Virus record (IMG/VR): IMGVR_UViG_3300007734_000749
Span: 2,650-66,649 of that record
Length of the DNA stretch: 64,000 nucleotides
DNA from: a virus
Strand: one strand, 5' to 3'
Part shown: positions 36,113-52,820 of the stretch, in pieces
Position numbering within the stretch: the stretch's first letter is position 1
How the letters are laid out: each line of letters starts with the position of its first letter
Position numbers and translations under genes: made by a program
The notes under the pieces: model-generated
The model's database searches: none
What the model was told of the DNA's origin: nothing
Seen by the model: the letters and a program-made list of their open reading frames with translations, nothing else

Positions 36113-36133
36113 TATTTATAATAAAATTAAGGA

Positions 36134-37096
36134 ATGATATCATTGGTTAGTATTTTTAAGGAAACACTCCTTGAAGGAGGTAACGTATTTGGCACTACTT
36201 CTTCTATTAAAAAAGAATACATCCAGCCTACTTTAGATAAATTTATTAAAGAATTAAAACGTCTTTATCCTAAAATAAATTTTGATTTTGAAACTTTAGG
36301 ATCAGTAGGTAAAAAAGATGAATCTGGAGATATAGATTTAGGATTTAGTATTAATAATTTTATTACTACTCAAGGTGAACCTAAACTCTTAGAATGGGGA
36401 ATTGACTCTAAAGAATTTCAATCTACTTATGAAGCAATACGAAAAAAAGCTCGTACTGCTTCTGAATTACAAAGTACTATAAGAGCTGTACTTCAATTAG
36501 TAGCAGTTAATATAGAAAATAAATCTCAACTTATTACTACTGATTCTAAAGCTGCAGGTAGTGGATCTATATTTTGTACTTTCCCCCAATATGATAAAAG
36601 TGGAAAACAAGTAGAAGATAAAACTGTTCAAATTGATATTAATGTTGGAAGTATAGATTGGCTTAAGTTTAGTTATTATTCTAATACTTACAAAGATAAT
36701 GTTAAAGGTCTTCATAGAACACAATTAATGGTAGCTTTATTTCAAGCAGCAGGAATGACTTTTAGTCATGGTGCTGGAGTTAAAATGAAAGATACTGGAG
36801 AAACTGTAGCTACAAATCCACAAGAAGCTATTGAAGCTCTAAACAAAGCATACAATATTAACATTACCTCAGATGTTTTAAATGATTATTTTGAATTAAT
36901 ATCTTATCTTAAACAAAATCTTCATAGAGAAAAATATAATAAAATTTTAGATATATATTTAAAAATTCTTGACTCTACTAGAGCAGACATACCTACTAAT
37001 ATCCAAAAATACTGGATAGAAAACCAAGATAGACTTGGCCTTAAAGGTAAATTCCTACCAGATGATTCTAGTTTAACTAAATATAAAAAAGTATAA
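36134..37096 (+). CDS. Pol-beta superfamily nucleotidyltransferase with short N-terminal leader
   Basis: LGSVGKKDESGDIDL and VQID motifs; leader MISLVSIFKETLLE|GGN. Confidence 0.75.
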   Translation: MISLVSIFKETLLEGGNVFGTTSSIKKEYIQPTLDKFIKELKRLYPKINFDFETLGSVGKKDESGDIDLGFSINNFITTQGEPKLLEWGIDSKEFQSTYEAIRKKARTASELQSTIRAVLQLVAVNIENKSQLITTDSKAAGSGSIFCTFPQYDKSGKQVEDKTVQIDINVGSIDWLKFSYYSNTYKDNVKGLHRTQLMVALFQAAGMTFSHGAGVKMKDTGETVATNPQEAIEALNKAYNINITSDVLNDYFELISYLKQNLHREKYNKILDIYLKILDSTRADIPTNIQKYWIENQDRLGLKGKFLPDDSSLTKYKKV

Positions 37097-40000
37097 TGTC
37101 AGGTTCAGCAGGAGGAAATAGAATTCCTAGAGAAGCAGTACAAGCTACTGTAAATGATTATATAGATAAAGTTTTATCTAAATATCCTGGCTTTAAATCT
37201 GCTAAAATTACTGGTTCCTATAATACCAGTAAAAAATCAGATTTTGGAGATATTGATTTAATTGTTCAAATTGACGGTGAAGACAAAAAACTAATTAAAC
37301 AAGACCTAGCCAAATTCTTTACCTCATTCCCAGATTCTATAATAGTACCATTTAAAAGTGAAAAATACAGTGGTAAAAAATTTATGAATACTGGAGAATT
37401 AGTAACTATACTTTATCCAATAATAGGATTTGAAGACCAATACGCTCAAATAGATAATATTATATCGGTAAGTGAAGAAGAATCTGTTTTTAAAAATTCT
37501 TTTCTTGATTATCCTGCTGAAATACAAGGTTTACTTTTAGGCCTAGCTAAAGTAATATGCCTTGAAGAAAACCCAAAAGATATATTTAAGCGATTAGGCA
37601 TTACCAATGTCCCTGAATTAGAAGAAAATCAAGAATACGAGTTTAATCTCTCCAGTTCAGGTTTAACATTACGTATAGTTACTTTAGATAACTTTAAAGA
37701 AACAGACCGCACTGAGGTTTGGAAAACCTCTAATTGGGGTAAAATTAAACTCCTTTTTCAAAACTACAATATTGATTCTGATTTCCCTACCCTCCTTTCA
37801 GATTTATCTAAAAAACTAACAAATTCTAGATCTAAAACTAGAGTAAAAGGTATATTTAAATCTATGGTATCTATTAAAAGTGGAGAAGTAGGTACTGCTA
37901 AAGGAGATAATAAAGCTAAAGCAATACAAAGTGTAGATTCATTATTAGAAAATAAACTTTGCAAAGGATTAGTTGAATCTCTTATTACCCCTTTTCTTAT
38001 TGAAGATCAAGAAACAACAGGTAAAACTTTAATAAAATTTTCCCCTGATGAAACCGTAGCCCTCTACCCAGGCAAATTCAAACCACCACATAAAGGACAT
38101 TTAGATGTAGTTAATCAACTTACTCAAATAGCTGATAAAGTGTATGTTATAATTTCTCCTAAAACACATGAAGGAATAACATCTAATCAAAGTTTAGCCA
38201 TTTGGGAAAATTTATATGCTCCTTTAATTCTAGATAAAAGTAAAGTTACTTTCTTAATAGCCAGAATTTCCCCTATAGGAGATACATATGATATAATTGA
38301 AGCTAACCCTGAAACTAATTTTATAGCAGCATACGGAAAGGATGAAGTAGGTAGATATCAAAGTAAATTTAAATCTGATAAAGTAAATATATATAATGCT
38401 GGAGAAATAGAGGGAGTAAATTCAACTAAACTTCGTCAAGCTTTATTTTCTCAAGGAGATATAACTCCTTATATCCCTGAAGAAGTATCTTCTGTAAAAT
38501 ATTTAGAAACTTTAGGATTATTATTACATGAAAACATAGAAGAATATAAAAACAAAACATCCCTTAATCCTTCTGTATTCTCAGATCTAGAAATAAAACC
38601 TAAAGTAAAAGATGCATTATTAAAAATAGCTAATCGTTTTTGGGATTCCCTTGATTTAGACATTAAATATGAAGACATACTTCTTCTAGGTAGCTCAGCT
38701 AATTACAATTGGACTCCATACTCAGATATTGATTTACACATTTTAGTAGATTTTGACCAATTTGAAGACCCTGAAATAGCTAAAAAATATTTTGACTCAG
38801 CAAAATCTAGATTTAATGATGCTCATGATTTAAAAATAAAGAAAAACGATATTGAAGTATATATTCAAAATTCTAAAGAACCTAATGCTAGTGTAGGTGT
38901 TTATTCTTTATTAAATAATAAATGGCTTCAAGAACCAACATATGAAAAAATAGAAATTCCTGATAAAGATATAGAAAATAAGGCTAAACCTTATAAACAA
39001 CAGATAGATAAGATTATCAATACTAAACCTACTCCTAAAAATTATGATTCTTTAGTAGATAAAATAGATAAACTTCAAGAAAAAATTAAAAAGTTTAGAC
39101 AAACAGGTTTACAAGATGAAGGAGAATATTCTATAGAAAATTTAGCATTTAAAAATCTTAGAAATACAAAATATATAGAAAAACTTTTTAACTTTAAAAA
39201 TGAGATAACTGATAAAATTTTATCAATAAACGAAATTTTCAATCAACCCGTAGATTCATATTCATTTTCTTCCGAAAACGGAGAACAATACTCTTTCACT
39301 ACAGAAAATAACGAAATATACACTGTAGAAATTTTACCTGCTTCTGAAAATAGGATTTTTATAGATTTTGGTGTTCAAATCCCTGATGATATTGATTATA
39401 GTACTACCAATAAAGGAGATTTATATAAAGTAATGTCTACTATTATTGCAATTACTAAAGATTATATAGATAGACATCCTGAAGTAGAAATTATATCGTG
39501 GCAATCTATAGGAAAAACAGGAGAAACTAAAATAGGAGATACACAAAGAGATAAACTTTATAAACTTATTCTTAAAAGACAAGGTGGTCTTAAAGATGAT
39601 GACATTGTATTTAAAAATGGAGAATGGTGGGCATACTTAAAAGGTTACGATACTGTATTTGAAGGATATGCTGTTCGTTATACTGATGCTCCATTAGAAA
39701 CCTTTACTTATAAAGATCTTCTAGCAGTAGGTTCTCACGCAACCTCACAACTCTCCCCAGCTAACCTTGTTTTTTCAAACCATTTTTTAGATCGTGTTAA
39801 GGAAAGAGGAATCACCAAACAAGAACTTATTGATTTCTTTACTCACTTAAACCAAAACCCAGAAGCAAAGAAAAAATTATTTTCTAAATTACAAAATTAT
39901 GATGATGAATTATTAGCTACTGATTCTAAAACTAGTATAAATATACCATTAGCTAAAAAAGGAGGTAAAGATATTAAAGCTATTACTGTTATGAGAAAAA

Positions 40001-40893
40001 AAGGGTTTAGGCCTAATAATCCTAATGACCCTCACATTGTATTTGAAGATAAAAAAGATTTCTTTGGTTTAAATGAATACGCTAGAGAATTAGCTACTGA
40101 CTTAACAGAAGCAGACCCTAAAACAGGTACTGGTAAAAAACCAAAAGGATCAGGTCGTCGTTTGTATACTGATGAAAATCCTAAAGACACTGTATCTATT
40201 AAATTTAAAACTAAAGAAGACATAGCTGCTACTTTAAATAAAGCATCATTTAAGTCAAAATCTCATGCTCGTCAATCTCAAATTATTAATTTAATACACC
40301 AACGAGTTAGAGCAGCATATCAAAATGCTAAAGATCCTGAAGTTAAAAAACGTTTAAAACGTGCTTTAGAATATATTACTAAACGTAAAGAAACTTCTAA
40401 AAAGAAAACTAAGCGTTTACAAAAATTAACTGAAGCAAATAATATAAAAACTTCTAAGGCCCAATACGCTGTTAAAATATTAGTGTTAGATTCTATGGAT
40501 AAATTTGGAACTCAAGACTATTTACCATATATTAAGATGTTAACTCAATATATGATAGATAATGGATTAAATATTAATCCTTTACCTAAATTAATTTTTA
40601 TTGATAATGATGTAGAAAACGCTAATAATATATTAGGTCGTACTGCCCATTATGATCCTAATAATAAATGTATTACTTTGTTTACATATGGGCGACATCC
40701 AAAAGATGTATTACGTTCATATGCTCATGAAATGATTCATCATTTACAAAATTTAGAAAATAGAATAGTAAATGTTAAAACTTTTAATATCAATGAAGAT
40801 GATTATTTAAAAGAATTAGAACGTGAAGCATATGAAAAAGGAAATCTCATGTTTAGAGGATGGGAAAATAATTTAAAATCACAAAATGATTAA
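37096..40893 (+). CDS. multidomain protein: NTase + HxGH cytidylyltransferase-like + second NTase + unknown module + RNase-like module + basic module + HExxH metallopeptidase
   Basis: GSYN..SDFGDIDL (37213), YPGKFKPPHKGH (38065), LLGSSANYNW..YSDIDLH (38680), HFLDRVKERG/ITVMRK (39781/39982), HEMIHH (40726). Confidence 0.75.
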   Translation: MSGSAGGNRIPREAVQATVNDYIDKVLSKYPGFKSAKITGSYNTSKKSDFGDIDLIVQIDGEDKKLIKQDLAKFFTSFPDSIIVPFKSEKYSGKKFMNTGELVTILYPIIGFEDQYAQIDNIISVSEEESVFKNSFLDYPAEIQGLLLGLAKVICLEENPKDIFKRLGITNVPELEENQEYEFNLSSSGLTLRIVTLDNFKETDRTEVWKTSNWGKIKLLFQNYNIDSDFPTLLSDLSKKLTNSRSKTRVKGIFKSMVSIKSGEVGTAKGDNKAKAIQSVDSLLENKLCKGLVESLITPFLIEDQETTGKTLIKFSPDETVALYPGKFKPPHKGHLDVVNQLTQIADKVYVIISPKTHEGITSNQSLAIWENLYAPLILDKSKVTFLIARISPIGDTYDIIEANPETNFIAAYGKDEVGRYQSKFKSDKVNIYNAGEIEGVNSTKLRQALFSQGDITPYIPEEVSSVKYLETLGLLLHENIEEYKNKTSLNPSVFSDLEIKPKVKDALLKIANRFWDSLDLDIKYEDILLLGSSANYNWTPYSDIDLHILVDFDQFEDPEIAKKYFDSAKSRFNDAHDLKIKKNDIEVYIQNSKEPNASVGVYSLLNNKWLQEPTYEKIEIPDKDIENKAKPYKQQIDKIINTKPTPKNYDSLVDKIDKLQEKIKKFRQTGLQDEGEYSIENLAFKNLRNTKYIEKLFNFKNEITDKILSINEIFNQPVDSYSFSSENGEQYSFTTENNEIYTVEILPASENRIFIDFGVQIPDDIDYSTTNKGDLYKVMSTIIAITKDYIDRHPEVEIISWQSIGKTGETKIGDTQRDKLYKLILKRQGGLKDDDIVFKNGEWWAYLKGYDTVFEGYAVRYTDAPLETFTYKDLLAVGSHATSQLSPANLVFSNHFLDRVKERGITKQELIDFFTHLNQNPEAKKKLFSKLQNYDDELLATDSKTSINIPLAKKGGKDIKAITVMRKKGFRPNNPNDPHIVFEDKKDFFGLNEYARELATDLTEADPKTGTGKKPKGSGRRLYTDENPKDTVSIKFKTKEDIAATLNKASFKSKSHARQSQIINLIHQRVRAAYQNAKDPEVKKRLKRALEYITKRKETSKKKTKRLQKLTEANNIKTSKAQYAVKILVLDSMDKFGTQDYLPYIKMLTQYMIDNGLNINPLPKLIFIDNDVENANNILGRTAHYDPNNKCITLFTYGRHPKDVLRSYAHEMIHHLQNLENRIVNVKTFNINEDDYLKELEREAYEKGNLMFRGWENNLKSQND

Positions 40894-41422
40894 ATTAGTT
40901 GAACTATATAAAAATAATCTTACCCCAAATTATATTATATATTGTGATATGGATGGGGTAATTTGTGATTTTGATGCCCGTTTTGATTACTTTACAGGAA
41001 TGTCTCCTAAAGAATATGAAGAAAAATTTGGAATTAAAAAATTCTGGAACTTAATTGATGATCAAATTGGAATAGAATTTTGGTCTAAAATCCCATGGAT
41101 GCCCGAAGGAAAAATTTTATGGGAATACATCAGAAAATATAATCCTATCCTCCTCTCAGCTCCTTCTCAAAATAATGAATCTAGAATAGGAAAACGAATT
41201 TGGGTTGAAACTCATATAAACAAATATCTCCCACCTCCTGCTCCAAAAATTAAATTAATTTTAGCATCTAGAGAAAACAAACAAAATTATTCTGAAAAAA
41301 ACTCAATACTTATAGACGACAGAGAAGACACTATTAAGGAATGGAATTCTCGTGGTGGTATTGGAATATTATTTGAATCAACTGAACAAACTATAAATGA
41401 TTTAAAAAAATTAGGACTATAA
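40886..41422 (+). CDS. HAD-family 5'(3')-nucleotidase-like phosphatase
   Basis: DMDGVICDF, LS, K, LIDD motifs. Confidence 0.85.
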   Translation: MIKLVELYKNNLTPNYIIYCDMDGVICDFDARFDYFTGMSPKEYEEKFGIKKFWNLIDDQIGIEFWSKIPWMPEGKILWEYIRKYNPILLSAPSQNNESRIGKRIWVETHINKYLPPPAPKIKLILASRENKQNYSEKNSILIDDREDTIKEWNSRGGIGILFESTEQTINDLKKLGL

Positions 41423-41423
41423 A

Positions 41424-41993
41424 ATGGCTAATAATGTTTTAAAAAAAGAATTTCAACGTAAAGATGTAGAACGTCTTCGTAACCTAATGAAAGGTAAATA
41501 TGGAGAAAAAACAACTGTTGGAACAGGTTATACTAAACAACAAGAATTTCATGAAGAAGGAGATATATGGAATGAAAATGACCGTGTGTGGACTATTAAA
41601 AATGGTATAAAACAAAATATTACTAAACTAGATAAAGCAAAAGAATTAATTCATGTTCCTTTATTTTGTCCTTGTTGTAATAAAATTATGAAAAATAGAC
41701 ATGATAAACCTTTTTATCTCCAATATAAAAGATGTTTTAATTGTCAAATAGAATTTGAAACAGAACTTAAAATTAAAGGTTTATGGGAAGAATATGAAAA
41801 AAACATCCTTAATTCAGATATTGATGGAATGATAAATGAATTTAATATTTGGATGGATGAAGAAATAAATGAATCCAATAACTCATACATTACTGAAGCT
41901 GGAGATGTTGAGCGTTGGGTAGGTTCTTTAAAGAAGAAGTTGCTAGAAAATAAAGAAGAAACAATTAAGTACCTACAAAATTTAAAAAAGTAA
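41424..41993 (+). CDS. conserved hypothetical protein with Zn finger
   Basis: CPCC...CFNC; WTIKNGIKQ motif. Confidence 0.65.
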   Translation: MANNVLKKEFQRKDVERLRNLMKGKYGEKTTVGTGYTKQQEFHEEGDIWNENDRVWTIKNGIKQNITKLDKAKELIHVPLFCPCCNKIMKNRHDKPFYLQYKRCFNCQIEFETELKIKGLWEEYEKNILNSDIDGMINEFNIWMDEEINESNNSYITEAGDVERWVGSLKKKLLENKEETIKYLQNLKK

Positions 41994-42601
41994 TGGAATT
42001 TATCATACCTATTACAATTGCATTAACTACATCTGTATTTGGTCCTATTCTAGTAGAATGGACTAAAAGAAAATTTTTTACTAAACAAACTGATCCTTTA
42101 CATGATGCAATTATCCATAATGAATTAATAGAACAACAATTAGATTTAATTTTAAAAGAAATTGATTGTGATCAAATTTACATAGCCCAATTCCATAATG
42201 GTGGACACTTTTACCCTACAGGAAAATCAATTCAAAAATTTTCTGTATTTTATGAGGTTGCTACCCCAAATGTAACCCCACTAAAAACCTCACTACAAAA
42301 CATCCCCGTATCCTTATTTAGCAAACAATTTTCTATGTTATATGAACATGGAGAAATTATAATTGAAAACACCACCCAGGACCCTACTTATGGGCTTGAA
42401 GCATTTCAAATTGAAAATCCATGTAAATCTGTTTATTTATTTGCTATAAAAGATTTAGATGATAGAATTGTTGGGTTAATGGGGATACATTTTACTGAAA
42501 CTTCTCATAAATTTACAACAGAAGAATGGATATTTATAAGACAGAAAATGGGTGCCATTGGAAATTTAATGAGCAACTATTTAAATAATAAAAAATCTTA
42601 A
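41993..42601 (+). CDS. single-TM protein with GAF-like domain (T4 T-holin-like architecture)
   Basis: N-terminal TM; QFHNGG, KFSVFYE, PCKSVYLFAI...VGLMGI pattern. Confidence 0.55.
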   Translation: MEFIIPITIALTTSVFGPILVEWTKRKFFTKQTDPLHDAIIHNELIEQQLDLILKEIDCDQIYIAQFHNGGHFYPTGKSIQKFSVFYEVATPNVTPLKTSLQNIPVSLFSKQFSMLYEHGEIIIENTTQDPTYGLEAFQIENPCKSVYLFAIKDLDDRIVGLMGIHFTETSHKFTTEEWIFIRQKMGAIGNLMSNYLNNKKS

Positions 42602-42604
42602 ATA

Positions 42605-43003
42605 ATGGATAATTTCGATATGAGAAAATGGAGACGCTCTTTTTTATTTGAAGGAGAAATGTCTTCTGCTCCTTATACTAAAAAAATTGGGGATTTAACT
42701 TGGGAAGATGTAGCTGGTCTTAGTCTTCCTACTGGTGAATCTGGAGGAGTAATGAATACAATGGATGATCGTGACATGTTTAGTCCTGAAAGGAAAGAAT
42801 CTATGCTTAATAACTGGAAAGCAAGAATATCTAAGTCATTTCCTAATGCTTTAAATATGGATATTACTATTGATAGAAATAACCCAACATGGTTTGAACG
42901 AGCAGTTATTACTGACCCTGAATATGTTGAGACAATGAAAAAGAAAGAAGATGCTTTCCAAGCTGAATACGACAGATATAGAGGAAGTTATCAAGGAGAT
43001 TAA
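42605..43003 (+). CDS. hypothetical protein
   Basis: MDNFDMRKW...LFE|G leader. Confidence 0.65.
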   Translation: MDNFDMRKWRRSFLFEGEMSSAPYTKKIGDLTWEDVAGLSLPTGESGGVMNTMDDRDMFSPERKESMLNNWKARISKSFPNALNMDITIDRNNPTWFERAVITDPEYVETMKKKEDAFQAEYDRYRGSYQGD

Positions 43004-43021
43004 TAAAAAAATACAACAAAC

Positions 43022-43417
43022 ATGGATATTACTTTAATTAAAAACAACCCTAATGACCTAGGAAAATTAGTTTCTTTTCTATTTCATTCCCGCACCCAAG
43101 CTCATGTCTATCATCTCCAAACCCCATCATTTGCAGCACATAATGCTTTAAATGCTTTTTATGATGGTATTATAGGTTTAACAGATGGTTTAGTAGAATC
43201 ATACCAAGGAAAATATGGTATTATTACTGGATATGAAACATATGATCTATTAGAATACAACAGCTGTGAAGAAATTATCATGTTCTTTCAAAGCCTTTGT
43301 AATACTATAGAAAAACTTCGTATGTCTGTTCCTCAAGACACATACATCCAAAATCAAATTGATGAAATAGTTGCTCTTGTTACTTCTACTATTTATAAAC
43401 TTAAATTCTTAAAATAA
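43022..43417 (+). CDS. ferritin/Dps-like four-helix protein
   Basis: HVYHLQT.SFAAH.AL..FYD...D.LVESYQG and YKL.FL motifs. Confidence 0.7.
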   Translation: MDITLIKNNPNDLGKLVSFLFHSRTQAHVYHLQTPSFAAHNALNAFYDGIIGLTDGLVESYQGKYGIITGYETYDLLEYNSCEEIIMFFQSLCNTIEKLRMSVPQDTYIQNQIDEIVALVTSTIYKLKFLK

Positions 43418-43758
43418 TGGTAGATTATAAAGAACTTTTAGCAATGCTTCTTAGTACTCCTAAAGGACAAATATTTCAAAATGATCCTCGTTTTAAAGTA
43501 CAAGATAATGAACCTGAAGAAGAAGTAAAAAACAAATATTTAATGCTTCAAAATGTAATAAGAATGGGCAAAAACCCAATTTCTATTACTCCATCATTAA
43601 CTGAAATGCTAGAAGAACTTGTTAATCAAACTTTAGAGGAAGAACTTTGCCCTGCTGGTAAAGCATACATAAAAAAAAGAAAAGCAGCTGGTGAAAAATC
43701 ATCCGCTTACCTCTCAGGTCGTGCTGTAAAAGTATGTAAAGGACAAATGAAAGGATAA
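43417..43758 (+). CDS. hypothetical protein with basic C-terminal Cys module
   Basis: LEE|ELCPAGKAY...SAYLSGRAVKVCKG. Confidence 0.65.
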   Translation: MVDYKELLAMLLSTPKGQIFQNDPRFKVQDNEPEEEVKNKYLMLQNVIRMGKNPISITPSLTEMLEELVNQTLEEELCPAGKAYIKKRKAAGEKSSAYLSGRAVKVCKGQMKG

Positions 43759-43759
43759 A

Positions 43760-44047
43760 ATGGACATCAATAGTATTCGTGAAATAATTCGTGAATCACT
43801 ACGTGATTGGTTCAAAAAAGAAAAATGGGTACGCATTGATACTCAAGGTAATATTACTGGTCCGTGCGGTACTATGAAAAAAGGTAAAGCAACTACTCGT
43901 TGCCTTCCTTATTCTAAAGCTAAAAATTTAACTAAAGCTGAACGTGCTGCTACTGCTAGAAAAAAAGTGGCAGGAAGTAAAAAAGGTAAACAGTTTGTTT
44001 CTAATACAAATAAAGCTAAAGTTAAATTTAGAAATAAAAAATCATAA
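43760..44047 (+). CDS. small basic protein
   Basis: IREIIRE|SLRDWFKKEKWV...PCG...CLP motif. Confidence 0.7.
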   Translation: MDINSIREIIRESLRDWFKKEKWVRIDTQGNITGPCGTMKKGKATTRCLPYSKAKNLTKAERAATARKKVAGSKKGKQFVSNTNKAKVKFRNKKS

Positions 44048-44067: not shown

Positions 44068-45219
44068 ATGGAAAATAATTCTTCTAATAATCTTATTTCT
44101 CGCATGCAAAAACTTGCAGGAATAATTACTGAAAACTCATATCTTCAAGACCCTAATCCTATATCTAACATTCAACAGATGAACCCTCAACAAAAACAGG
44201 ATAAAGATATTGAATGGGCTAATATGGATTACGAAGAAAAAACTAATCTTCTCCTCCAATATGTCCCAGACCCGGATAAAGCTGCATTATATGCTGATTA
44301 TGCCTGGGACAACTTACCAGATTTTCTTATAGCAAGTTTAGGAAATGTTGATTTAACTCCACAAGGTAGTCTTGAACCAATCAATGAAGAATTAGATGAA
44401 ATTTTAGCTTTACTAGAAAAAGCTGAAAAAAAAGATAAAGAAGAAGAAACTTCTGAAGAAGAAACCCCTGAAGAAACACCTGCAGAAGAAGAAACCCCTG
44501 AAGAAACCCCAGCAGAAGAAACACCCGAGGGTGAAGGAAGTGGAGATGTAAAACAAGTACAAAATGCTTTAGAACAAGCATATAATAGTGCTAAAGGATT
44601 AAATGATGAAAAACTCACAAATCAAATAGCTAATACTATTACTTATTTTACTAAAACTCAAATTCTTAAACAAACCGAAAAAGAAGAAGAAATTACTGAA
44701 GATATATTTTCATCCTTAGTAAAAGAAATCGCCCCCAAACCAGACCCAAAACAAGATAAAGTTGGAGGAAATACAAGTGCTCTAGTTACTGCATTAAAAG
44801 GTCTTGATGTCCCTGGATTAAACTCCCAATTATTAGGATCATCCCTTACTAAAATCAAACAGGGTGTTCCTGGAGATAAACTCAGCACTGGTGAATTAAA
44901 AGAAATCTCTAAAGTATTTGCCCAAATGATTCGAACAGGAAATGATAGTGCAATTAATAAAATTGCAGCAGCATTAAGAAGTATTGAATCTAAAGCAGGT
45001 AAAGAAGCATCAGCTCCAAATAAAAAAGAATTAAAAGAACAATTAATTCGTAAAATTGAAAGACTTCTTATAGAAAAACTTTCAAAAAAAGAAATGAGTG
45101 AAAAAGAAAAAATCGTAAAAGCTCTTAAATCTAATAAAAAAGATTTTGTAAAGAGATATGGTAAAGATGCTCAAAACGTAATGTATGCTACTGCTACTAA
45201 AATGGCTAAAAACAAATAA
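44068..45219 (+). CDS. candidate internal head protein with KLAGI motif and EETP repeats
   Basis: RMQKLAGIITEN near N-terminus; acidic EETP tract; C-terminal RYGKDA..VMYATATKMAK module. Confidence 0.65.
   Translation: MENNSSNNLISRMQKLAGIITENSYLQDPNPISNIQQMNPQQKQDKDIEWANMDYEEKTNLLLQYVPDPDKAALYADYAWDNLPDFLIASLGNVDLTPQGSLEPINEELDEILALLEKAEKKDKEEETSEEETPEETPAEEETPEETPAEETPEGEGSGDVKQVQNALEQAYNSAKGLNDEKLTNQIANTITYFTKTQILKQTEKEEEITEDIFSSLVKEIAPKPDPKQDKVGGNTSALVTALKGLDVPGLNSQLLGSSLTKIKQGVPGDKLSTGELKEISKVFAQMIRTGNDSAINKIAAALRSIESKAGKEASAPNKKELKEQLIRKIERLLIEKLSKKEMSEKEKIVKALKSNKKDFVKRYGKDAQNVMYATATKMAKNK
44443..44530 (+). repeat. coding tandem repeat GAAGAAAC(A/C)CC (EETP)
   Basis: Repeated units inside 44068..45219. 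Confidence 0.8.
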
Positions 45220-45734: not shown

Positions 45735-45758
45735 TAATAAAAATAAATTCAACCAATC

Positions 45759-46292
45759 ATGAAAAATAATAATATAATCACAGAACAACAAGTAGAACAA
45801 ATTATACAAGAACTTATTGAAGAAGGATTTTTTGATAGACTTAAAGCTACAGCCTCAGGAACATTTGCTGGATTAAAGCAAGGAGCTAAAAATTTTCAAT
45901 CATACATGAAAGGAGATCCTAAAGGTATACTTCCTCCTAAACTAATGAAAAATTTAAATAAATTAAGTTCCTCATTATCTACTGTTGAAAAATCCCTTAC
46001 AAGCGCTTCAAATGATTTTAATACCCTCTTCCCAGCTGGCTCTGAAGCAGATTTACCTAAAGGCTTAAGTGATGTTATATCCCAATATAAAAATACTTTA
46101 GAACAAACATTACAAGCTAGTACTGCTGTACTTGATATGGTTAAACAAGGAATTGCAGACCCACAAGCCCTTCTTAAGGCCTCTAAAAAATCCCCAGCAA
46201 AAAAATCTAAAAAACCAGCACCTAAACCTGCTGCTAAATCAGGTAAATCTACACCTAAACCAACTACTAAGTCTACTAGAAGAACCCCATAA
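45759..46292 (+). CDS. hypothetical protein with K/P-rich tail
   Basis: IIQELIEE|GFFDRLKA leader; histone H1-like tail. Confidence 0.65.
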   Translation: MKNNNIITEQQVEQIIQELIEEGFFDRLKATASGTFAGLKQGAKNFQSYMKGDPKGILPPKLMKNLNKLSSSLSTVEKSLTSASNDFNTLFPAGSEADLPKGLSDVISQYKNTLEQTLQASTAVLDMVKQGIADPQALLKASKKSPAKKSKKPAPKPAAKSGKSTPKPTTKSTRRTP

Positions 46293-46309
46293 TTATTTGT
46301 TTTTAAAAC

Positions 46310-47350
46310 ATGAGTGTTTTTGATACATTTTTTACTAAGTTTTCTTACAAATTTGATAAGGGCTACCCAGACATGAAAGACCCAAAGGATATAGTTCTGC
46401 TTAAAAAATTAGTTATAGAAACATTAGGTTTAGTAATTGAAGAAAAAGACTATGATGATCAAATATTAGATCTTCTTACTAATTTATCTGATGATGAAGC
46501 AAAGAAAAAAGTAATTGCTTATTTATCTAAGATTAATAAAAAAGAAGACAAAGAAGATAATAAATTAGAAGAAAATATAACTAAACATCTTGTAAATAAA
46601 AACTTAACTGGAGATATAATAGATAGTATTTTATTTAAAGTCATTAAATCTAAACAACTACAAGAATTTTCGGATTATTTAGATAATCCTAACGTTACTC
46701 ATTCTGATTTACTAAATAATAACAACTTAAATTCTTTATTTAATGAAGTCTCACTTAACTCTGACCTAAAAAACACTATTATTAATATATCAGGAGCTTT
46801 AGGAAATATTACTTTTGGTAAAGGAGAAATAGCATTAATAGTATTTTTAAAAGGAGCTATTAAACATAAATCTTCTAAAGAACAAAAAGGAGATATCCAA
46901 ATAGAAGGTCATGTTTTAGAATTAAAACGAGGAAAATTTATTGTAGCTCCTGCTGCTTATATAAGTCGAGCTACTAAAACTGATTTATTTAAGGGTACTA
47001 AATCTAAAGAATTTATTGAAAAATATAATATAGATTTATCATCTAGAACACCTTGGCCTTCACTTATAATTAAAGCTAAGCCTGAAGAAAAAGAAGTAAA
47101 AGAAATTCTAAAGGAAATATACCCTGGATTAGATATAGATATAGATTTATCTAGCCCTGAAGCCTTAAATACGGCTGTAGGTTTAGCATTAGCTAAAGAT
47201 TATTTAGATAATAAAGATTTACTCCTTATAAGTGAACAAAATAAATACATCTGTGTTGAAAACTATAATGCTTTTAAACAGGGGGTTGAGTCTGGATTTA
47301 TAGGATTTAGCCTAGCATCAGACATTATTCCTAGATGTTACATAAATTGA
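46310..47350 (+). CDS. putative PD-(D/E)xK restriction-like nuclease with N-terminal extension
   Basis: GKGE...KGDIQIEGHVLELK motif. Confidence 0.5.
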   Translation: MSVFDTFFTKFSYKFDKGYPDMKDPKDIVLLKKLVIETLGLVIEEKDYDDQILDLLTNLSDDEAKKKVIAYLSKINKKEDKEDNKLEENITKHLVNKNLTGDIIDSILFKVIKSKQLQEFSDYLDNPNVTHSDLLNNNNLNSLFNEVSLNSDLKNTIINISGALGNITFGKGEIALIVFLKGAIKHKSSKEQKGDIQIEGHVLELKRGKFIVAPAAYISRATKTDLFKGTKSKEFIEKYNIDLSSRTPWPSLIIKAKPEEKEVKEILKEIYPGLDIDIDLSSPEALNTAVGLALAKDYLDNKDLLLISEQNKYICVENYNAFKQGVESGFIGFSLASDIIPRCYIN

Positions 47351-47377
47351 TAATATTTATAATAAAAATCTAATACT

Positions 47378-47983
47378 ATGGGATGTGCTTGTGGATGTAA
47401 TACTTGTCATATATCGCCATTACTAAATGAAGCGAAACAGTATGATGCTCCTATATCTGAAAATTTAAGATATCATATAGACAAGAAAATACCGCTTAAT
47501 GAAAGTATATTTAGAGCAGGTTCAAATGCTCATGTCAATTTACTTCAAGAAGCACGTAATCTTTGGAATCAAGGCATTATTGAATTCCAAGATTTAGATA
47601 AAAAACTATTTGAAAACACAGATCTAGGTAAAATAGGTGTTTACGAAGGTAAAGTAGTACCATTAGATTTTCCTATAATGGAAATATTAACTGAAGCAGA
47701 AAAGAAAAAGAAAAATCCTCCTTTAGGAAAACCTAAACGTGGTGGCTCAAAGAAATTTTATGTTTATGTAAGAGATCCTAAAACTAAAAACATTAAAAAA
47801 GTGTCATTTGGTCAAGTAGGAATGTCTGCAAAAATTAATGATCCAAAAGCACGTCAAGCATTTGCTAAAAGACATAAGTGTGCTCAAAAAACAGATAAAA
47901 CTAAACCTAGTTATTGGTCCTGTCGCTTACCTAGATATGCTAAATTATTAGGTCTAAAATCAACATTCTCAGGATTCTGGTAA
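47378..47983 (+). CDS. hypothetical protein with basic C-terminal module
   Basis: LTE|AEKKK...KKFYVYV...KKVSFG...FAKRHKC...YWSC. Confidence 0.7.
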   Translation: MGCACGCNTCHISPLLNEAKQYDAPISENLRYHIDKKIPLNESIFRAGSNAHVNLLQEARNLWNQGIIEFQDLDKKLFENTDLGKIGVYEGKVVPLDFPIMEILTEAEKKKKNPPLGKPKRGGSKKFYVYVRDPKTKNIKKVSFGQVGMSAKINDPKARQAFAKRHKCAQKTDKTKPSYWSCRLPRYAKLLGLKSTFSGFW

Positions 47984-47986
47984 GAT

Positions 47987-49168
47987 ATGGCAAACGATTT
48001 AAAAACATATGGTGATTTAAAAAAAGCTATTAAATCTATCACTACCAAGCAAAAAGGAGAAAAAATTGCCGGAGTAGCAGCTGATGTCCTTGCTGGTTTT
48101 ATACCAGGTGCTGATGCTGCAAAAACTACAGTAGGCTTTGTAAAAGCTCTAATGGCAAAACCAGATAATAAAAAAACTAAAACTTGGTTAGATAAGTTAG
48201 ATGTAGATGATAAATTTTCTAAAATAGTTGATGATACTGTAGAAAATGGATTCATAGATAGTATATCTCAAGATATTGCATCTAAATCTGATGATGAATC
48301 TTTAGATCCTAATTTTAACATGAATGATAAATTATCCCAATATTTAAAAGCTAAATATTCTGGTAGAACTGTGACTGGAGTATCTGAAATTATTAGAGAA
48401 ATATTATTAGAAGCTGGCTTTTCTTTTACTCCTAAAAAAGGAGGAGTAGGGGGTAGAAGATATATTCCTAAATTTTTTACTTTAGAAAAATCTATTAGAG
48501 ATCAATTTAGTGATCTTATTAAATTTTATGGAGGAGTAATGTATGTTGACCCTCAAGTTCCTATTGCTTTAGGATACTTAGAAAGAGGCAGACAATCATA
48601 TGAAAAAACCCAAAATTTTCCTTCATTAACCAAAGCCCTTCAAGACAAGCTCCCTCAACCTATTAGATTAGCCATTAAAAAAGGAGTAGAAGACCAGAAA
48701 TTAGTAAATGTTGGTGATAAACAAATGATTCCATTAGATTTAGAAATTACTAGAGATGAATTTGGGAATTATTTAATTAAAAATCCATATACTACTCTAG
48801 ACGAATATAAGTTATTCTTAACAGAAATGTTAATTTTAGAAAAAAAAAACGTATCTAATATTTATCAATTAGAATCATTATTAGTTACTGATACTAGTGT
48901 TCGTAACCAAGCTGAAATCCTTTCTGATATTCGTTCTTTACCTGGAGTTACTATTGTATCTACAGACCCATTAAATCCAAGTCAAACAGTTCAAAATAAA
49001 GATAGAGTTGAATCTAAACTTTATTTAAAAATTGACCCACATCCTTTTTTAGGTAAAGGAGGATTTGGAGACGAAGAACTCGATTCCATATACTCTAGCA
49101 TTAAAAAAATCAAAGGTGTTACCGTATTTAGAGTAATTGGTAAACCTATTAAAAAAACACTACGATGA
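47987..49168 (+). CDS. multi-module hypothetical protein
   Basis: Three segments separated by EIIREILLE|A and LTEMLILE|K; last has DIRSLPGVTIV. Confidence 0.65.
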   Translation: MANDLKTYGDLKKAIKSITTKQKGEKIAGVAADVLAGFIPGADAAKTTVGFVKALMAKPDNKKTKTWLDKLDVDDKFSKIVDDTVENGFIDSISQDIASKSDDESLDPNFNMNDKLSQYLKAKYSGRTVTGVSEIIREILLEAGFSFTPKKGGVGGRRYIPKFFTLEKSIRDQFSDLIKFYGGVMYVDPQVPIALGYLERGRQSYEKTQNFPSLTKALQDKLPQPIRLAIKKGVEDQKLVNVGDKQMIPLDLEITRDEFGNYLIKNPYTTLDEYKLFLTEMLILEKKNVSNIYQLESLLVTDTSVRNQAEILSDIRSLPGVTIVSTDPLNPSQTVQNKDRVESKLYLKIDPHPFLGKGGFGDEELDSIYSSIKKIKGVTVFRVIGKPIKKTLR

Positions 49169-49422
49169 TTAAATTAGTAGATTTACTTAAAGAAGGAAAA
49201 AAAGAAAAATATCCTCCTTACATGTATTCACCTGTAGGATTTGGTTGCCATGTTTGTGAATATTATTATATGGAAGATAACAAGCACTATTGTAATAATA
49301 AAGAATACCAAAGTTATATGGGTACTAATGAATTAGTAGATAATGAAGGTAACCAAATTCAAGATCCATCTAAATGGTGTTCAAATTGGTTTCACCCTAA
49401 AGAAAAAGATGAAACCATATAA
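49165..49422 (+). CDS. small Cys4 metal-binding protein (HiPIP-like spacing)
   Basis: MIKLVDLLKE leader; CHVCEYY...C...WCSNWF. Confidence 0.55.
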   Translation: MIKLVDLLKEGKKEKYPPYMYSPVGFGCHVCEYYYMEDNKHYCNNKEYQSYMGTNELVDNEGNQIQDPSKWCSNWFHPKEKDETI

Positions 49423-49669
49423 AGATATAGAAGTAACATATACTTATATTATTCGTGAATTTGACGAAAATATAGATCCTATTGAACTAAAATGGCATCG
49501 TGATAAAGAAGACCGTTTAGTAGAAATTATAGGAGAAACAAATTGGCAAATACAACTTGAAAACCAATTACCAACTTCTATAAATTATCAAATATTTATA
49601 CCAAAATACGAGTGGCATCGTATTATTAAAGGAACAGGAACACTAAAATTAAAAATACACAAATCATGA
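49409..49669 (+). CDS. small cupin-like protein
   Basis: WHRD.EDR and IFIP..EWHR motifs; ATG at 49409 preferred. Confidence 0.6.
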   Translation: MKPYKDIEVTYTYIIREFDENIDPIELKWHRDKEDRLVEIIGETNWQIQLENQLPTSINYQIFIPKYEWHRIIKGTGTLKLKIHKS

Positions 49670-50067
49670 AAAAATCAGATTTAAAAAATATCATTCAAGA
49701 AGAAATTGAAAATATGTTAAATGAAAATATTACTCCTATAAGTGATTTAGGTGATGTAGTTCCTTTTCTTAATGCTAATAAGGAAAAAATTTTTCAAATA
49801 GCTGATGAATATAAAGGAGATACTATGTCTATGCAAGCTGCATTAAATAATTTTCTAGCCCCATACATTGAAAACACCCCAGAATTTATAGTTACTAGAA
49901 TGAAAGCAGCTATTGGTAGTGCAATATTAAGAAGAAATGTTGCTGCTAATCCTAAATCACAAGCAGCATATGATGAATTAAAAAACACATTAAATAAAAG
50001 AAATAATCCAATGAATGAATCATTTCTTAAAATGCAAAAATTAGCTGGTATTATTACTGAAAATTAA
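49666..50067 (+). CDS. candidate internal head protein
   Basis: MKKSDLKNIIQEEI leader and C-terminal KMQKLAGIITEN. Confidence 0.65.
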   Translation: MKKSDLKNIIQEEIENMLNENITPISDLGDVVPFLNANKEKIFQIADEYKGDTMSMQAALNNFLAPYIENTPEFIVTRMKAAIGSAILRRNVAANPKSQAAYDELKNTLNKRNNPMNESFLKMQKLAGIITEN

Positions 50068-50125
50068 ACCCTAACATATAGACAGATTCATAGCCTGTCG
50101 CTTAAAAAAATAAATTATGGTAGCT

Positions 50126-50158
50126 GTGGCACCCCTAAAAAGGTGCCACTTTTATTTT
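50126..50158 (+). terminator. Rho-independent terminator
   Basis: GTGGCACC-N8-GGTGCCAC then TTTTATTTT. Confidence 0.85.
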
Positions 50159-50193
50159 GGCTTATTAAATAAATTTTATTATCTTTATAAAGT

Positions 50194-51519
50194 ATGAATA
50201 AAAAAATAGTAATTATAGGTGCAGGAGTAGCTGGTATAAATGCAGCTACTAAATTAGTTGACAATGGTTACCCTGGTAACTTAATCACAATTATAGACAA
50301 AGGTAATGACCCTCATAACCGTTTACCTGAAGAAGTAATGACAGGTATGCTCGGTGCAGGAGGATGGAGTGATGGTAAATTAACTTATCACACTGCAATT
50401 GGAGGTGTATTATCAAAATATTGTGGTGAAGAAAAAGCAATGGAATTAATGGATCAAGTCATTAGCAACTTTAGACGTTTCCATCCTAAACCAGAAGAAA
50501 TATTTTGCTCTGATCCACAAGCAGAACCTGATTTTATTAAACCATATTTTGGATTACGTTTATTCCCAGTATGGCATATTGGTTCAAATTATCTACATGA
50601 GATTGCTAAAGCATGGTATTCATATTTAGTTGATAATGGTGTTAGTTTTATGTGGAATACCGAAATCACTAATCTAAATTTATCTAATAATTGGGTTAAT
50701 TATATAGATAGTCTTAACGAAAAAGAAGCTATTACCTATGATACCCTAATATTTGCAGTAGGTAAATCAGGTATTGATTTTGCCCAAAAAACATCTAATC
50801 AATATAATCTCCCTACAGAACCTAAATCAGTTCAAATTGGGGTCCGTTTTGAAGCACCACAAAAATACTTTCAAAAACTAATTGATATTAGTTATGATTT
50901 TAAACTATATCAAAAGTTTGATAATGTATCATTACGCTCATTCTGTACTAATAATAACGCAGCTTATGTAGCAGTAGAAGAAACATATGGTGATATTAGT
51001 TACAACGGTCATGCTAAAAAAGGTGAACAATTCAGAAATGATATGACCAATTTTGGTATTTTAATGGAAATTAAAGGCATTGAAAATCCGTTTGAATGGT
51101 CAAGAAAAGTAGTAAGTGAATGTAATATAATTGATGGACAAACAGAAGAAAACTTAGGTGGTATATATTACTCACCAAATCAAACTAGACAACCATCAAA
51201 TACTTCAGAAGGAGAAAGAGTCAAATCTCATCAATCTCCTAAACAAATATTACCTTTAGTACGAAATGCTTTTGGTGGTTATTTTGAACATATTGAAAAC
51301 TTTATTGACCAAATGAATAAAGTATTTGAATTTGGTGATGATTGGGGAATGTATATTCCTGAAGTAAAGTATTTATCTCCTGAACCATTAGTAGACTATA
51401 AAAACTTAGCGTTAGTAGACTATCCAAATGTACACTTTGTAGGTGATGCCTTATCTGCTCGTGGTATTACAGTTAGTGGTGCTCAAGGAATTTATGTAGC
51501 TGAAAGTTTAATAAAATAA
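50194..51519 (+). CDS. FAD/NAD(P)-dependent oxidoreductase
   Basis: IVIIGAGVAG Rossmann motif, GAGGWSDGKL, IGVRFE, RSFC, FVGD..RGI. Confidence 0.85.
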   Translation: MNKKIVIIGAGVAGINAATKLVDNGYPGNLITIIDKGNDPHNRLPEEVMTGMLGAGGWSDGKLTYHTAIGGVLSKYCGEEKAMELMDQVISNFRRFHPKPEEIFCSDPQAEPDFIKPYFGLRLFPVWHIGSNYLHEIAKAWYSYLVDNGVSFMWNTEITNLNLSNNWVNYIDSLNEKEAITYDTLIFAVGKSGIDFAQKTSNQYNLPTEPKSVQIGVRFEAPQKYFQKLIDISYDFKLYQKFDNVSLRSFCTNNNAAYVAVEETYGDISYNGHAKKGEQFRNDMTNFGILMEIKGIENPFEWSRKVVSECNIIDGQTEENLGGIYYSPNQTRQPSNTSEGERVKSHQSPKQILPLVRNAFGGYFEHIENFIDQMNKVFEFGDDWGMYIPEVKYLSPEPLVDYKNLALVDYPNVHFVGDALSARGITVSGAQGIYVAESLIK

Positions 51520-51526
51520 AAAAGTT

Positions 51527-51763
51527 ATGCCAATAGATCAAACATTACAAGTTAAAAAATTTACATCAACTGATGGAACAATACGTTATATGAAAGATGG
51601 TAAACTACATAACTGGGAAGGACCAGCTGTAATTCATCCTGATGGTAAAGAAGAATATTTTATTAATGGTTTTCAACATACCAAGGATAGTTGGAAAAAA
51701 GCTAGAAAAGATGGTATTGGATTACCTTGGTATAAATCAAGTGTGGCTAAAGCTAGATTTTAA
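51527..51763 (+). CDS. small protein with GKLH..xGPAV repeat unit
   Basis: GKLHNWEGPAVIHPDGKEEYFING. Confidence 0.65.
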   Translation: MPIDQTLQVKKFTSTDGTIRYMKDGKLHNWEGPAVIHPDGKEEYFINGFQHTKDSWKKARKDGIGLPWYKSSVAKARF

Positions 51764-51776
51764 TTATCTTTAAAAT

Positions 51777-52307
51777 ATGAAAATAGGATTTTGTGGTACA
51801 ATGAGTGTAGGTAAATCTACACTTGTACATGCTTTAAAAGAATTACCTGAATTTAAAGATTATTTCTTTGCTACTGAACGTAGTAAATACTTACGTGATT
51901 TAGGTATCCCATTAAACACAGATAGTACATTAAAAGGTCAAACAATATTCTTAGCTGAGCGTTGTTCTGAATTAATGAGGGAAAATGTTATTACTGATAG
52001 AACAATAATTGATGTAATGGCATTTGCTGAATGTGCTCAATCAATTGAGAAAAATGAAAAACAGTCTTTTATTAATTATGCTTCTCAATTCATTAAAGAA
52101 TATGATTATATATTTTATATTTCTCCTACTGGGGTAGAAATTGAAGATAATGGTGTTAGAGAAACAAATATTGAATATCGTAATTTAATTGATATTTCTA
52201 TAAAATCTTTAATTAAATCTAATATAGATAGTTTTCAAAACTTTGGTATAATTACAGGCACTGTAGAAGAAAGAATTAAACAAGTTAAATTTTATTTAAA
52301 GTTTTAA
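51777..52307 (+). CDS. P-loop nucleoside/nucleotide kinase (NadR/AAA_28-like)
   Basis: GTMSVGKST, ITDRT, EDNGVR, GTVEER. Confidence 0.75.
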   Translation: MKIGFCGTMSVGKSTLVHALKELPEFKDYFFATERSKYLRDLGIPLNTDSTLKGQTIFLAERCSELMRENVITDRTIIDVMAFAECAQSIEKNEKQSFINYASQFIKEYDYIFYISPTGVEIEDNGVRETNIEYRNLIDISIKSLIKSNIDSFQNFGIITGTVEERIKQVKFYLKF

Positions 52308-52334
52308 TATTTATAATCAAAATTTTACTATAAA

Positions 52335-52820
52335 ATGAAACAACTTGATCTTTTAAGAAAACTCGTTAAAGAAACCCTTGAAGAAAAGGGACTTGATGAA
52401 ATGGCTCGTTTAGCCACTGGATATAAACTTACAGACAATTGGGAAGAAGCTTTTGCTTCATTGCCTCCTAATGTACAAAAATCCACTAGATTCCTTAGAG
52501 TCATTGACCATCTTAAAGAAAATCCTGGAGCTGAAATGAAAGATATAGCACTAGCCCAATTTGGTCCTAATGCTGATACTCCTGCAGTTAACCCACAAAT
52601 ACGTGCTTTACTAGATGCAGGTGTAGTTGAAAAAACAGGATATACAACTCCAAAAGCAATAAAAACTGAACCAACTGGTACTAGAGGTCGTCCAAAAGTT
52701 ACTAACGATGAATTAAAGATGATGGGTGCTCGTATAGCTTTAAAATTTGCTAAAGGAGATTCATCATATACCCCTGAAGAAGTAGAATATATCCAAAATC
52801 TCTATAATTCTTTACCTTAA
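52335..52820 (+). CDS. hypothetical protein, possible winged-helix DNA-binding
   Basis: LLRKLVKETLEE..LDE|MAR leader; helix-turn-helix-like core; RGRP. Confidence 0.55.
   Translation: MKQLDLLRKLVKETLEEKGLDEMARLATGYKLTDNWEEAFASLPPNVQKSTRFLRVIDHLKENPGAEMKDIALAQFGPNADTPAVNPQIRALLDAGVVEKTGYTTPKAIKTEPTGTRGRPKVTNDELKMMGARIALKFAKGDSSYTPEEVEYIQNLYNSLP

Follow-up and report, generated by a model that had tools for sequence, protein, structure and literature searches.

A 64-kb window, the whole stretch of DNA analysed here (positions 2,650 to 66,649 of the viral record IMGVR_UViG_3300007734_000749), makes up most of a 66,649-base contig with a G+C content of ~30% and genes nearly all on the + strand. 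It encodes a set of otherwise unrelated proteins that begin or end with short peptides, here called tags (or leaders, where N-terminal), which are the subject of this report. An earlier note, made from the sequence alone, had described positions 36113-52820 (below, the island) as a ~16-kb late-expressed cargo island whose proteins share an amphipathic N-terminal address ending at an LxE site. The source is best explained as a distant T4-like myophage of Flavobacteriia; among named phages, Flavobacterium phage vB_FspM_immuto (hereafter immuto) is its nearest relative, with a capsid-protein identity of 55.6% over 99% of the length and identical gene order. By Pfam and PHROGs matches the right end of the window holds a T4-type head module (Table 1), in which three unassigned open reading frames (ORFs) lie between the portal and prohead protease genes.

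Tags of at least four sequence classes emerged from comparison of protein ends. When the first 28 residues of 272 proteins from the contig and immuto were compared all against all, 96 pairs scored at least 35, as against 24 for random internal windows; with body-homologous pairs removed the figures were 68 and 20. Clustering recovered signal peptides, a positive control, and three leader classes with the consensus sequences M-E-N-F-D-L-K-K-[FY]-L-x-E-N-K-L... (class A), ...[LI]-[SN]-E-x-F-x-[RK]-M-Q-K-L-A-G-I-I-T-E (class B) and M-K-K-S-x-L-x-x-I-I-[KR]-E-E... (class C), while class D, M-I-[KS]-L-x-x-[IL]-[LF]-[KR]-E, was recognised by eye. Class B is also found at the extreme C-terminus of proteins, scaffolds among them. 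Profile searches covered six-frame ORFs from 82 sources, 1.05 Mb in total, and used reversed sequences as decoys, the independent test set being 80 loci around terL relatives in viral contigs (given L-numbers below) out of more than 601 matching stretches. Of the 31 matches that profile B gave above the best decoy (7.4 bits), 22 reached at least 28 bits. The seeds of profiles C and D came from the contig and immuto, so that matches in non-seed loci alone count as independent: profile C, from which the Met column was left out, gave 26 matches above the decoy maximum of 10.5, 16 of them in non-seed loci and 13 of those 16 right after the first Met, and profile D gave nine non-seed matches above 6.7 bits, six of them N-terminal. 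Across the 82 sources profile A recovered nothing above the decoys beyond its own 13 seeds, for which reason ORF 42605 is termed A-like by pattern only. No class matched any Pfam or PHROGs family, and 13 of 21 island proteins scanned (49165 included; those from 52335 onward and upstream genes not counted) had no Pfam match. The conserved residues of tag B are written with five Leu, three Ala, four Gly and five Arg codons, and this range of synonymous codons argues for selection on the peptide rather than on the DNA. As far as sequence can tell, these are real tags, specific in position, portable, and conserved as protein.

Several families illustrate how leader and body relate. All 42 of 42 orthologues of ORF 36134 carry a variable leader of 13-15 residues whose invariant Glu stands directly before an invariant G-G-N-V-F-G-T-T, and the immuto orthologue begins, leaderless, at G-G-N-V-F. 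An AlphaFold2 (AF2) model of this ORF (predicted local distance difference test, pLDDT, 82.9) has residues 1-20 below 50 and a well-folded body, its top Foldseek matches are DNA polymerase beta palm/thumb, and the protein has the motif G-S-x-G-K...S-G-D-I-D-L and a mean column identity of 78% across 19 aligned orthologues; the model thus suggests a pol-beta-fold nucleotidyltransferase-like protein. A sequence search of the PDB with this family gave nothing useful, and the ESM Atlas returned only unnamed viral clusters and one with PF01909 in 33% of members. ORF 40886 encodes an NT5C-type 5'(3')-deoxyribonucleotidase (phrog_2643, 9.4e-27; PF06941, 5.4e-4, under the curated cut-off) with D-M-D-G-V at residues 21-25 (HAD-type D-x-D-G-V) and an enzyme domain from about residue 15. 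The start M-[IY]-x-L-x-x-[IL]-Y is kept in 11 of its 14 orthologues, the position of the Glu varies and 40886 itself has none at the consensus place; its tag assignment is ambiguous.

Other tagged ORFs recur in the same or a related layout in other genomes. Orthologues of 43760 have a variable leader ahead of a conserved S-L-R-D-W, and a leader of the 49165 type stands on unrelated bodies in L068, L053, L036, L042 and L018. Relatives of 49666 in L053 and L054 share its two-tag layout, and distant homologues of 52335 (L040, L035, L037) combine a class C leader with a C-terminal class B tag. In the baseplate region, 21043 has an orthologue in immuto (81525) with a leader identical in kind. Relatives of the head-module ORF 57762 (L040, L038, L039, L035) carry a class C-like motif internally or at the C-terminus; in the window, both the N-terminus of 57762 and an internal class C-like motif (58725-58760, where we located the internal motif reported by the earlier note) score below the profile threshold. 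As drawn, ORFs 49165-49422 and 49343-49669 overlap by 80 nucleotides; orthologues of the second start at an internal Met (M-[KR]-P-Y-x-D-[IL]-E), so that its true start is probably near 49409 and the overlap a first-ATG artefact.

Tags are exchanged among bodies and between ends. Grouped by body homology, the 31 B-tagged ORFs make 19 groups; their tags stand at the N-terminus in 16 cases, at the C-terminus in 11 and inside the protein in 4. One B-tagged family has its tag at the C-terminus in two genomes; in two others the tag is internal and a further module follows it. The 44068 family has class B in the window; homologous bodies in L012, L023 and L051 (E 1e-10 to 4e-9, low-complexity filter on) bear a class A variant in its place. 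Several genomes give the 47378 family a class C leader, which the window copy lacks, and the 43760 module is fused behind other modules in L033 and L051, its leader forming the junction. Long ORFs of this kind in L051 (frame 2, from residue 1279) and L033 (residue 1703), and in proteins P0001, P0021 and P0002, join in frame modules that are separate in the window, with a tag at each junction, as in a fusion of 47378-like, 43417-like and 43760-like modules. Such tag-jointed proteins could represent natural polyproteins that the head protease cuts, or else read-through in gene calling. The 47378 family (window 47378-47431; L028, L079, L014, L033, L018, L036) has a Cys-rich start, M-x-C-x-C-G-C-N-x-C, with [LV]-[LN]-[NT]-E about eight residues on. 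Leaders were absent from all orthologue rows shown (up to 63) for the primase, the exonuclease, the 1265-residue nucleotidyltransferase, 41424, the oxidoreductase 50194, 51527 and the AAA_28 kinase-like protein 51777. The 1265-residue protein (ORF 37096-40893) comprises two pol-beta-type nucleotidyltransferase segments, a cytidylyltransferase / NMN-adenylyltransferase-like segment and DUF6934; it lies directly 3' of the tagged 36134, and the pair is kept together in the fetched loci.

The position of Glu sites follows that of the tags. Among B tags with more than eight residues following, 18/18 have [LIVM]-x-E within eight residues after the tag (background 0.10); among C-terminal B tags, 28/28 have it within the preceding 13 residues (background 0.19), and a single one (1/28, ORF 49666) has a site after the tag as well. 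Three variant rows lacking the L-A-G core were dropped from these counts, and the rows span at least six unrelated families. Leaders of 36134, 43760, 44068, 49165, 49666, 52335 and 21043 likewise end in L/I-x-Glu next to the body. The site always lies between tag and body, at whichever end the tag stands, which is the arrangement required of a removable address. T4 gp21 cuts after L/I-x-Glu, according to passages of PMC9026906 and PMC5694885, and the protease of the window is 32% identical to it (E 2e-17) and keeps the His-Pro and G-V-S-S-R-G blocks with the catalytic His and Ser.

Class B has a counterpart in the putative scaffold protein. The scaffold ORF, 60203-61603, gave no match in Pfam and PHROG searches; its position and composition fit a gp22-type protein, its immuto orthologue carries other annotation, and the fetched loci contain 25 relatives. 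In 21/21 listed orthologues (20 aligned) the scaffold ends in P-I-[IVM]-E, five to six residues, R-[FMW]-x-x-L-A-[GF] and one to five residues more, the P-I-x-E site being at least 90% conserved among those aligned. Across 661,555 six-frame ORF residues the core [RK]-[MFW]-x-x-L-A-G occurs 37 times (never in reversed decoys): 18 in the listed scaffold tails, 1 in a further scaffold tail, 18 in profile-tagged ORFs and 0 elsewhere. As the core is confined to scaffold tails and tagged ORFs, cargo tag and scaffold tail share a motif that is unique in these genomes. A complex predicted, with no controls, from the capsid protein (alignment of 21) and the last 45 scaffold residues (alignment of 20) had a score of 0.00 and a mark of 0.32, which speaks neither for nor against binding. 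In the capsid protein itself, the propeptide residues L7, E9, S10, L34, L35, G37, V59 and E61 are invariant across 21 orthologues, and E61 aligns with E65 of T4 gp23, whose propeptide of 65 residues (a passage of PMC9026906) ends there.

Tagged genes are concentrated near the head genes and under a shared upstream motif. Profile tags are borne by 12/99 contig ORFs, namely 7/22 in the island (36134, 40886, 43760, 44068, 49165, 49666, 52335) and 5/77 elsewhere (p 0.004), and by 1/62 ORFs between 327 and 35327 (p 0.0002); the genes of most tagged accessory proteins lie in the interval from the replication genes to the terminase/head module. The earlier note had offered equal frequency in early ORFs as grounds for giving up its proposal; 7/22 island ORFs are tagged as against 0/32 early ones (p 0.001). 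In immuto, tags occur on 10/29 ORFs of the interval from tail-spike genes to scaffold versus 4/197 elsewhere (p 2e-7); its tagged ORFs include those at 102294, 102880, 103366, 103806, 111675, 112261, 113188, 117631, 118632, 123355, 24569 and 25061. The short late motif from which the same note argued, TATTTATA, is at chance level overall (26 matches, 24.2 expected), and it is the longer ATATTTATAA that is enriched, with 10 exact copies where 2.7 are expected, a number reached in 0/100 shuffles. All copies are on the + strand, none lies in the early region, and 9/10 stand 12-30 nucleotides upstream of an ATG; they precede the portal gene, ORF 56397, tail/baseplate genes, the tagged 21043, 36134 and 52335, and 47378, untagged here. 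A near-identical motif precedes three tagged ORFs just left of the window and the tagged immuto genes 24569 and 25061, which are distant from the head module. Since it is common to structural genes, we take ATATTTATAA to be a probable late promoter.

Other features of the layout were noted in passing. Early genes have a conserved upstream element of ~50 nucleotides (at 470-524, 1120-1173, 1950-2001 and before most ORFs to ~11000), G-T-A-C-C-G-A-G-A-T-T-T-T-A-A-A-A-C-T-A-A ... T-A-T-A-C-T-A-T-A-A-T-T-A-A-A-A-A-A-T-A, followed by an A-C-A-C-rich leader, probably an early promoter with its 5' leader and distinct from the late motif. Left of the window, at contig ~1540-1595, the late motif of the first tagged ORF comes directly after a terminator-like element, a G+C-rich hairpin followed by a T run, and the same arrangement precedes the tagged immuto gene 25061. 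Minus-strand genes form a single block (11422-15421) that separates the early region from the structural genes; of its seven small ORFs, several have hydrophobic N-termini. A gene resembling SegE-type GIY-YIG homing endonucleases (33922-34377; PF19835, 2.9e-24) lies between the tail-fibre genes and the primase; PHROGs labels this GIY-YIG family 'NAD synthetase'.

Table 1. Tags, candidate tags, late motif and head-module features of the window (slashes mark the site; scores in bits are profile scores).
Feature	Position	Strand	Details
Class C leader, ORF 21043-21393, baseplate region	21043-21078	+	profile C 17.0 bits; late motif 21030-21039
Late-type motif ATATTTATAA	36112-36121	+	other exact copies from 12516, 18074, 21030, 31131, 42530, 47353, 52307, 54456, 56375
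Class D leader, 14 residues ending L-L-E, ORF 36134-37096	36134-36175	+	profile D 14.2 bits vs decoy 6.7
Class D-like N-terminal extension, ORF 40886-41422	40886-40930	+	profile D 18.6 bits, but profile seed
Class A-like leader (M-D-N-F-D-...-F-E-G-E), ORF 42605-43003	42605-42658	+	sub-threshold; clusters with immuto ORF 125241 (small)
Class C leader, 12 residues ending I-R-E, ORF 43760-44047	43760-43795	+	profile C 16.9 bits vs decoy 10.5
Class B leader ending I-T-E, ORF 44068-45219	44068-44133	+	profile B 39.5 bits vs decoy 7.4
Class D leader, 10 residues ending L-K-E, ORF 49165-49422	49165-49194	+	profile D 18.6 bits, profile seed
Class C leader, ORF 49666-50067	49666-49725	+	profile C 16.8 bits
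Class B C-terminal tag, ORF 49666-50067	50011-50064	+	profile B 44.0 bits; residues 116-133 of 133; M-N-E precedes
Class C leader ending L-E-E, ORF 52335-52820	52335-52385	+	profile C 15.0 bits; late motif 52307-52316
Large terminase (terL)	52885-54456	+	
Portal, gp20 family	54472-56364	+	PF07230, 3.8e-68
N-terminus of head-module ORF 57762-59171, ending I-K-E/G	57762-57800	+	conserved; immuto orthologue has I-Q-E/G
Prohead protease, gp21 / MEROPS S77 family	59173-59778	+	Pfam PF03420, 2.7e-26
Class B leader, small ORF (probable start 59783, stop 60013) between protease and scaffold	59783-59848	+	profile B 44.0 bits
Putative scaffold protein, gp22 position	60203-61603	+	acidic, repeat-rich; between protease and major capsid protein genes
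Scaffold C-terminal tail	61544-61600	+	P-I-V-E site, then R-F-K-K-L-A-G core
Major capsid protein, gp23 family	61635-63320	+	PF07068, 5.2e-73
Capsid-protein propeptide	61635-61817	+	conserved sites L-L-E/S, L-L-E/G, V-x-E61/A

These results change the picture drawn by the earlier note in several respects. Every N-terminus that it quoted was found where it had been placed. Its loose motif, a helix followed by LxE, does show an N-terminal excess when defined as hydrophobic-x-Glu ending at residues 8-26 with eight preceding residues free of Pro and Gly (33/89 N-termini vs 119/598 internal windows, p 0.0006; in immuto 54/211 vs 239/1490, p 0.001), an excess that is weak at 1.6-1.9x, and requiring a small residue after the Glu left no significant difference in the contig (10/89 vs 41/598). 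Of its island examples, 36134, 40886, 43760, 49165, 49666 and 52335 pass the profiles and 45219 and 45759 do not rise above reversed decoys; of those beyond the island, 21043 passes and 57251 fails (3.7 bits). Absent from its list are the B tags of 44068 and 59783, the tag at the C-terminal end of 49666, the tail that closes the scaffold and the three tagged ORFs left of the window. The single leader gives way to the several classes described above, and tags are restricted neither to the island nor to N-termini. Nor is the stretch a cargo island: with 15 of its 22 ORFs untagged, including most of the recognisable enzymes (37096, 43022, 50194, 51777), whose orthologues are untagged as well in every row shown (up to 63), it is a mosaic of tagged modules and untagged enzymes. 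What survives of the core idea is that unrelated late proteins beside a gp21-type protease appear to bear portable leaders of a cleavable type resembling the T4 capsid-targeting sequence (CTS); the packaging and cleavage proposed with it we infer.

Tag B is widespread. When 8000 candidates, a capped number, from 5.8 billion proteins were scored, profile B matched at least 1444 protein clusters at E <= 0.01, nearly all without a Pfam family and some with NT5C (PF06941) or AAA_33 (PF13671). The best 120 B-tagged proteins carry 146 tags, of which 93 are N-terminal, 42 internal and 11 C-terminal, with two tags in 26 proteins; 24/42 internal tags are preceded by Met, as though neighbouring tagged genes had fused.

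We consider it probable, at about 0.62, that about a dozen unrelated late proteins of this phage carry a multi-class, scaffold-mimicking variant of the T4 CTS. T4 internal proteins reach the prohead core by N-terminal targeting sequences of 10-19 residues that bind the core and are later removed, according to passages of PMC9026906, PMC5694885 and PMC3012670. A Glu-to-Asp mutation of the T4 site stops processing and leaves targeting intact (PMC9026906). Here, tags would make contacts of the scaffold-end type during assembly of the prohead core, so that tagged proteins would be built into the prohead; the gp21-type serine protease would then cut after the Glu of [LIVM]-x-E, on the body side of the tag, and the mature proteins, freed inside the head, could enter the next host cell with the DNA. 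Binding to core or shell, cleavage, presence in the virion and injection are steps that we infer. Classes C and D seem to resemble, in pattern, scaffold and capsid N-termini and the propeptides of T4 gp24, gp22 and internal proteins. Class A is reminiscent of the T4 gp22 segment W-L-A-E-N-K-L and the scaffold repeats D-L-x-x-L-L-A-E, a sub-threshold resemblance offered as an idea only. More speculatively, and with rather less conviction, the tags might form a combinatorial address code derived from scaffold ends, in which copies of the tail would bind the inner face of the gp23-family shell or its propeptide, in the manner of encapsulin cargo peptides, and the other classes the core. A very abundant clade of aquatic T4-like phages would in this way load dozens of changeable enzymes, with nucleotidyltransferases, nucleotidases and kinases as candidates, and inject them as first-strike effectors.

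A number of observations weigh against a scaffold-mimicking address. Cargo B tags resemble each other across genomes more than they resemble their own scaffold tail; the cargo profile gives scaffold tails just 8-13 bits, and the window's own tail less than 8; scaffold tails with M-R-E-L-A-[GF] coexist with cargo tags with M-Q-K-L-A-G; and co-variation of tag and tail within genomes was looked for and not seen. The C-terminus of T4 gp22 has no L-A-G core, and the link to the scaffold tail is consequently not transferable from T4 biology. Class A appears as a pattern without significant scores, as does the resemblance that C and D show to the N-termini of scaffold and capsid proteins, and the class A gene 1803 of immuto lies among replication genes without a late motif. 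The counts of sites beside tags are not independent events because they include orthologues, and those of tags in the window are partly circular because profiles C and D were seeded there. The literature yielded no virion-proteomic, cleavage or binding data for this phage or its relatives.

One alternative keeps the scaffold interaction and dispenses with delivered cargo: tagged proteins would be transient core parts, like T4 gp67 and gp68, or size or shape factors, cut and expelled, and their tags scaffold-interaction modules. ORFs 57251, 57762 and 59783, counted as tagged for this purpose, do lie within the head module, where T4 has gp67/gp68, many tagged bodies are small, acidic or repeat-rich (44068, for example), and tags join modules in long proteins seemingly made for cutting up. 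Conserved, folded, enzyme-like bodies such as 36134, with its pol-beta fold (pLDDT 82.9) and 78% identity, are nevertheless a poor fit for throw-away filler, NT5C and AAA_33 domains carry B tags elsewhere, and T4 loads both kinds of protein by one route (a passage of PMC9026906), so that we regard this account as unlikely. It is also quite unlikely that the tags serve some other late function, such as protease docking, chaperone binding, oligomerisation or another late structure, with the scaffold tail using the same partner. The missing co-variation of tag and tail would suit such a role, as would the GroEL/GroES encoded by immuto; against it, the sole carriers of the core with a known role are scaffolds, always at the extreme C-terminus behind a protease-type site, the sites always fall between tag and body, and tagged genes cluster and are co-regulated with head genes, with a T4 precedent for the same logic (a passage of PMC9026906).

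Two further accounts deny the peptides a shared function. Leaders could be ordinary Lys/Glu/Leu/Ile-rich helices of a 30% G+C genome, or A-rich starts for translation without a Shine-Dalgarno sequence, with LxE arising by chance: the loose motif is enriched no more than 1.6-1.9x and occurs in 16-20% of internal windows, 45219, 45759 and 57251 pass no profile, and M-K-K starts are common in early genes too. For classes B, C and D, decoy and internal-window controls exclude this, as do the C-terminal copies, the codon variety and the Glu-ended leader in 42/42 members of the 36134 family, which makes it very improbable as a general account; refuted for the profile-defined tags, it is kept as the best reading of 45219, 45759 and 57251, which are indistinguishable from ordinary AT-rich N-termini. 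Alternatively, the shared segments could be DNA-level recombination linkers at gene boundaries whose peptides have no function, in keeping with the exact placement of tags at the joints between modules and their exchange among bodies. It is the amino-acid sequence, however, that is conserved, with free synonymous variation, and 36113-52820 has no megablast match in the phage collection; this DNA-repeat reading, rejected by the codon variety of tag B, is scarcely credible.

Parallels with other systems are partial. The herpesvirus scaffold tail binds the major capsid protein, and we know of no set of unrelated cargo proteins bearing that tail; encapsulin cargo-loading peptides are uncleaved, act without scaffold or protease and belong to cellular systems. 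By analogy only, the scaffold tail described here recalls the herpesvirus one in being a short C-terminal tail behind a protease (M) site in a system with a gp21-related protease (a passage of PMC9026906), and the tags recall the short terminal encapsulin peptides that send unrelated enzymes into an HK97-fold shell; encapsulins are the subject of a review (PMC8229669).

The T4 CTS of IPI-III and the Alt and gp24 propeptides share more with the tags: a length of 10-20 residues, a hydrophobic-x-Glu end, unrelated carrier proteins, a homologous S77 protease and a gp23-family capsid. The class D pattern is that of the T4 gp24 propeptide (T4 record), and T4 Alt is processed at both ends (a passage of PMC5694885). 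Unlike the T4 CTS, which forms one class, the tags appear to form at least four, one of which seems to copy the scaffold C-terminal tail and to be used at either terminus or between modules; the tagged proteins are also far more numerous, ~12 in 66.6 kb, and include enzyme-like bodies, all known here from sequence alone. No sequence homology to the T4 CTS is visible, the IPII/IPIII leaders having a general pattern in common with the tags in a comparison made without the profiles. Within T4, the 10-residue IPII/IPIII leader resembles the first 10 residues of gp22 (Q-E-F-I-A-E/A vs E-Q-L-I-A-E/A), and the T4 targeting sequence may therefore also copy a scaffold end. In the giant phages phiKZ and SPN3US, too, many head-internal proteins are processed after Glu by a gp21-related protease, and multi-site propeptides are thought to target them to the prohead (a passage of PMC5694885). 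Those propeptides differ in being mostly longer than 100 residues, in belonging to paralogous families and in being cut by an S80 protease at S/A-x-Glu sites (same source, in part); unlike the tags, they are neither short nor interchangeable, and no copying of a scaffold tail is known for them. We found no published description of the tags in the literature on capsid targeting, scaffolds, virion proteomes and immuto, supplements not covered.

Provided that the tags are capsid addresses, the virion-borne proteins of abundant uncultured aquatic phages could be picked out by a short profile search, and early take-over and anti-defence factors are best sought among proteins that go into the host together with the DNA. 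Should the address code hold as well, thousands of 'hypothetical' viral proteins would be recognisable from sequence as virion-delivered effectors. The cultured relative immuto makes the idea directly testable. If true, it would also supply natural short cleavable loading tags for phage-capsid engineering, and would show T4-type targeting to be an old and general principle, which can be made from copied scaffold ends and functions at either end of a protein.

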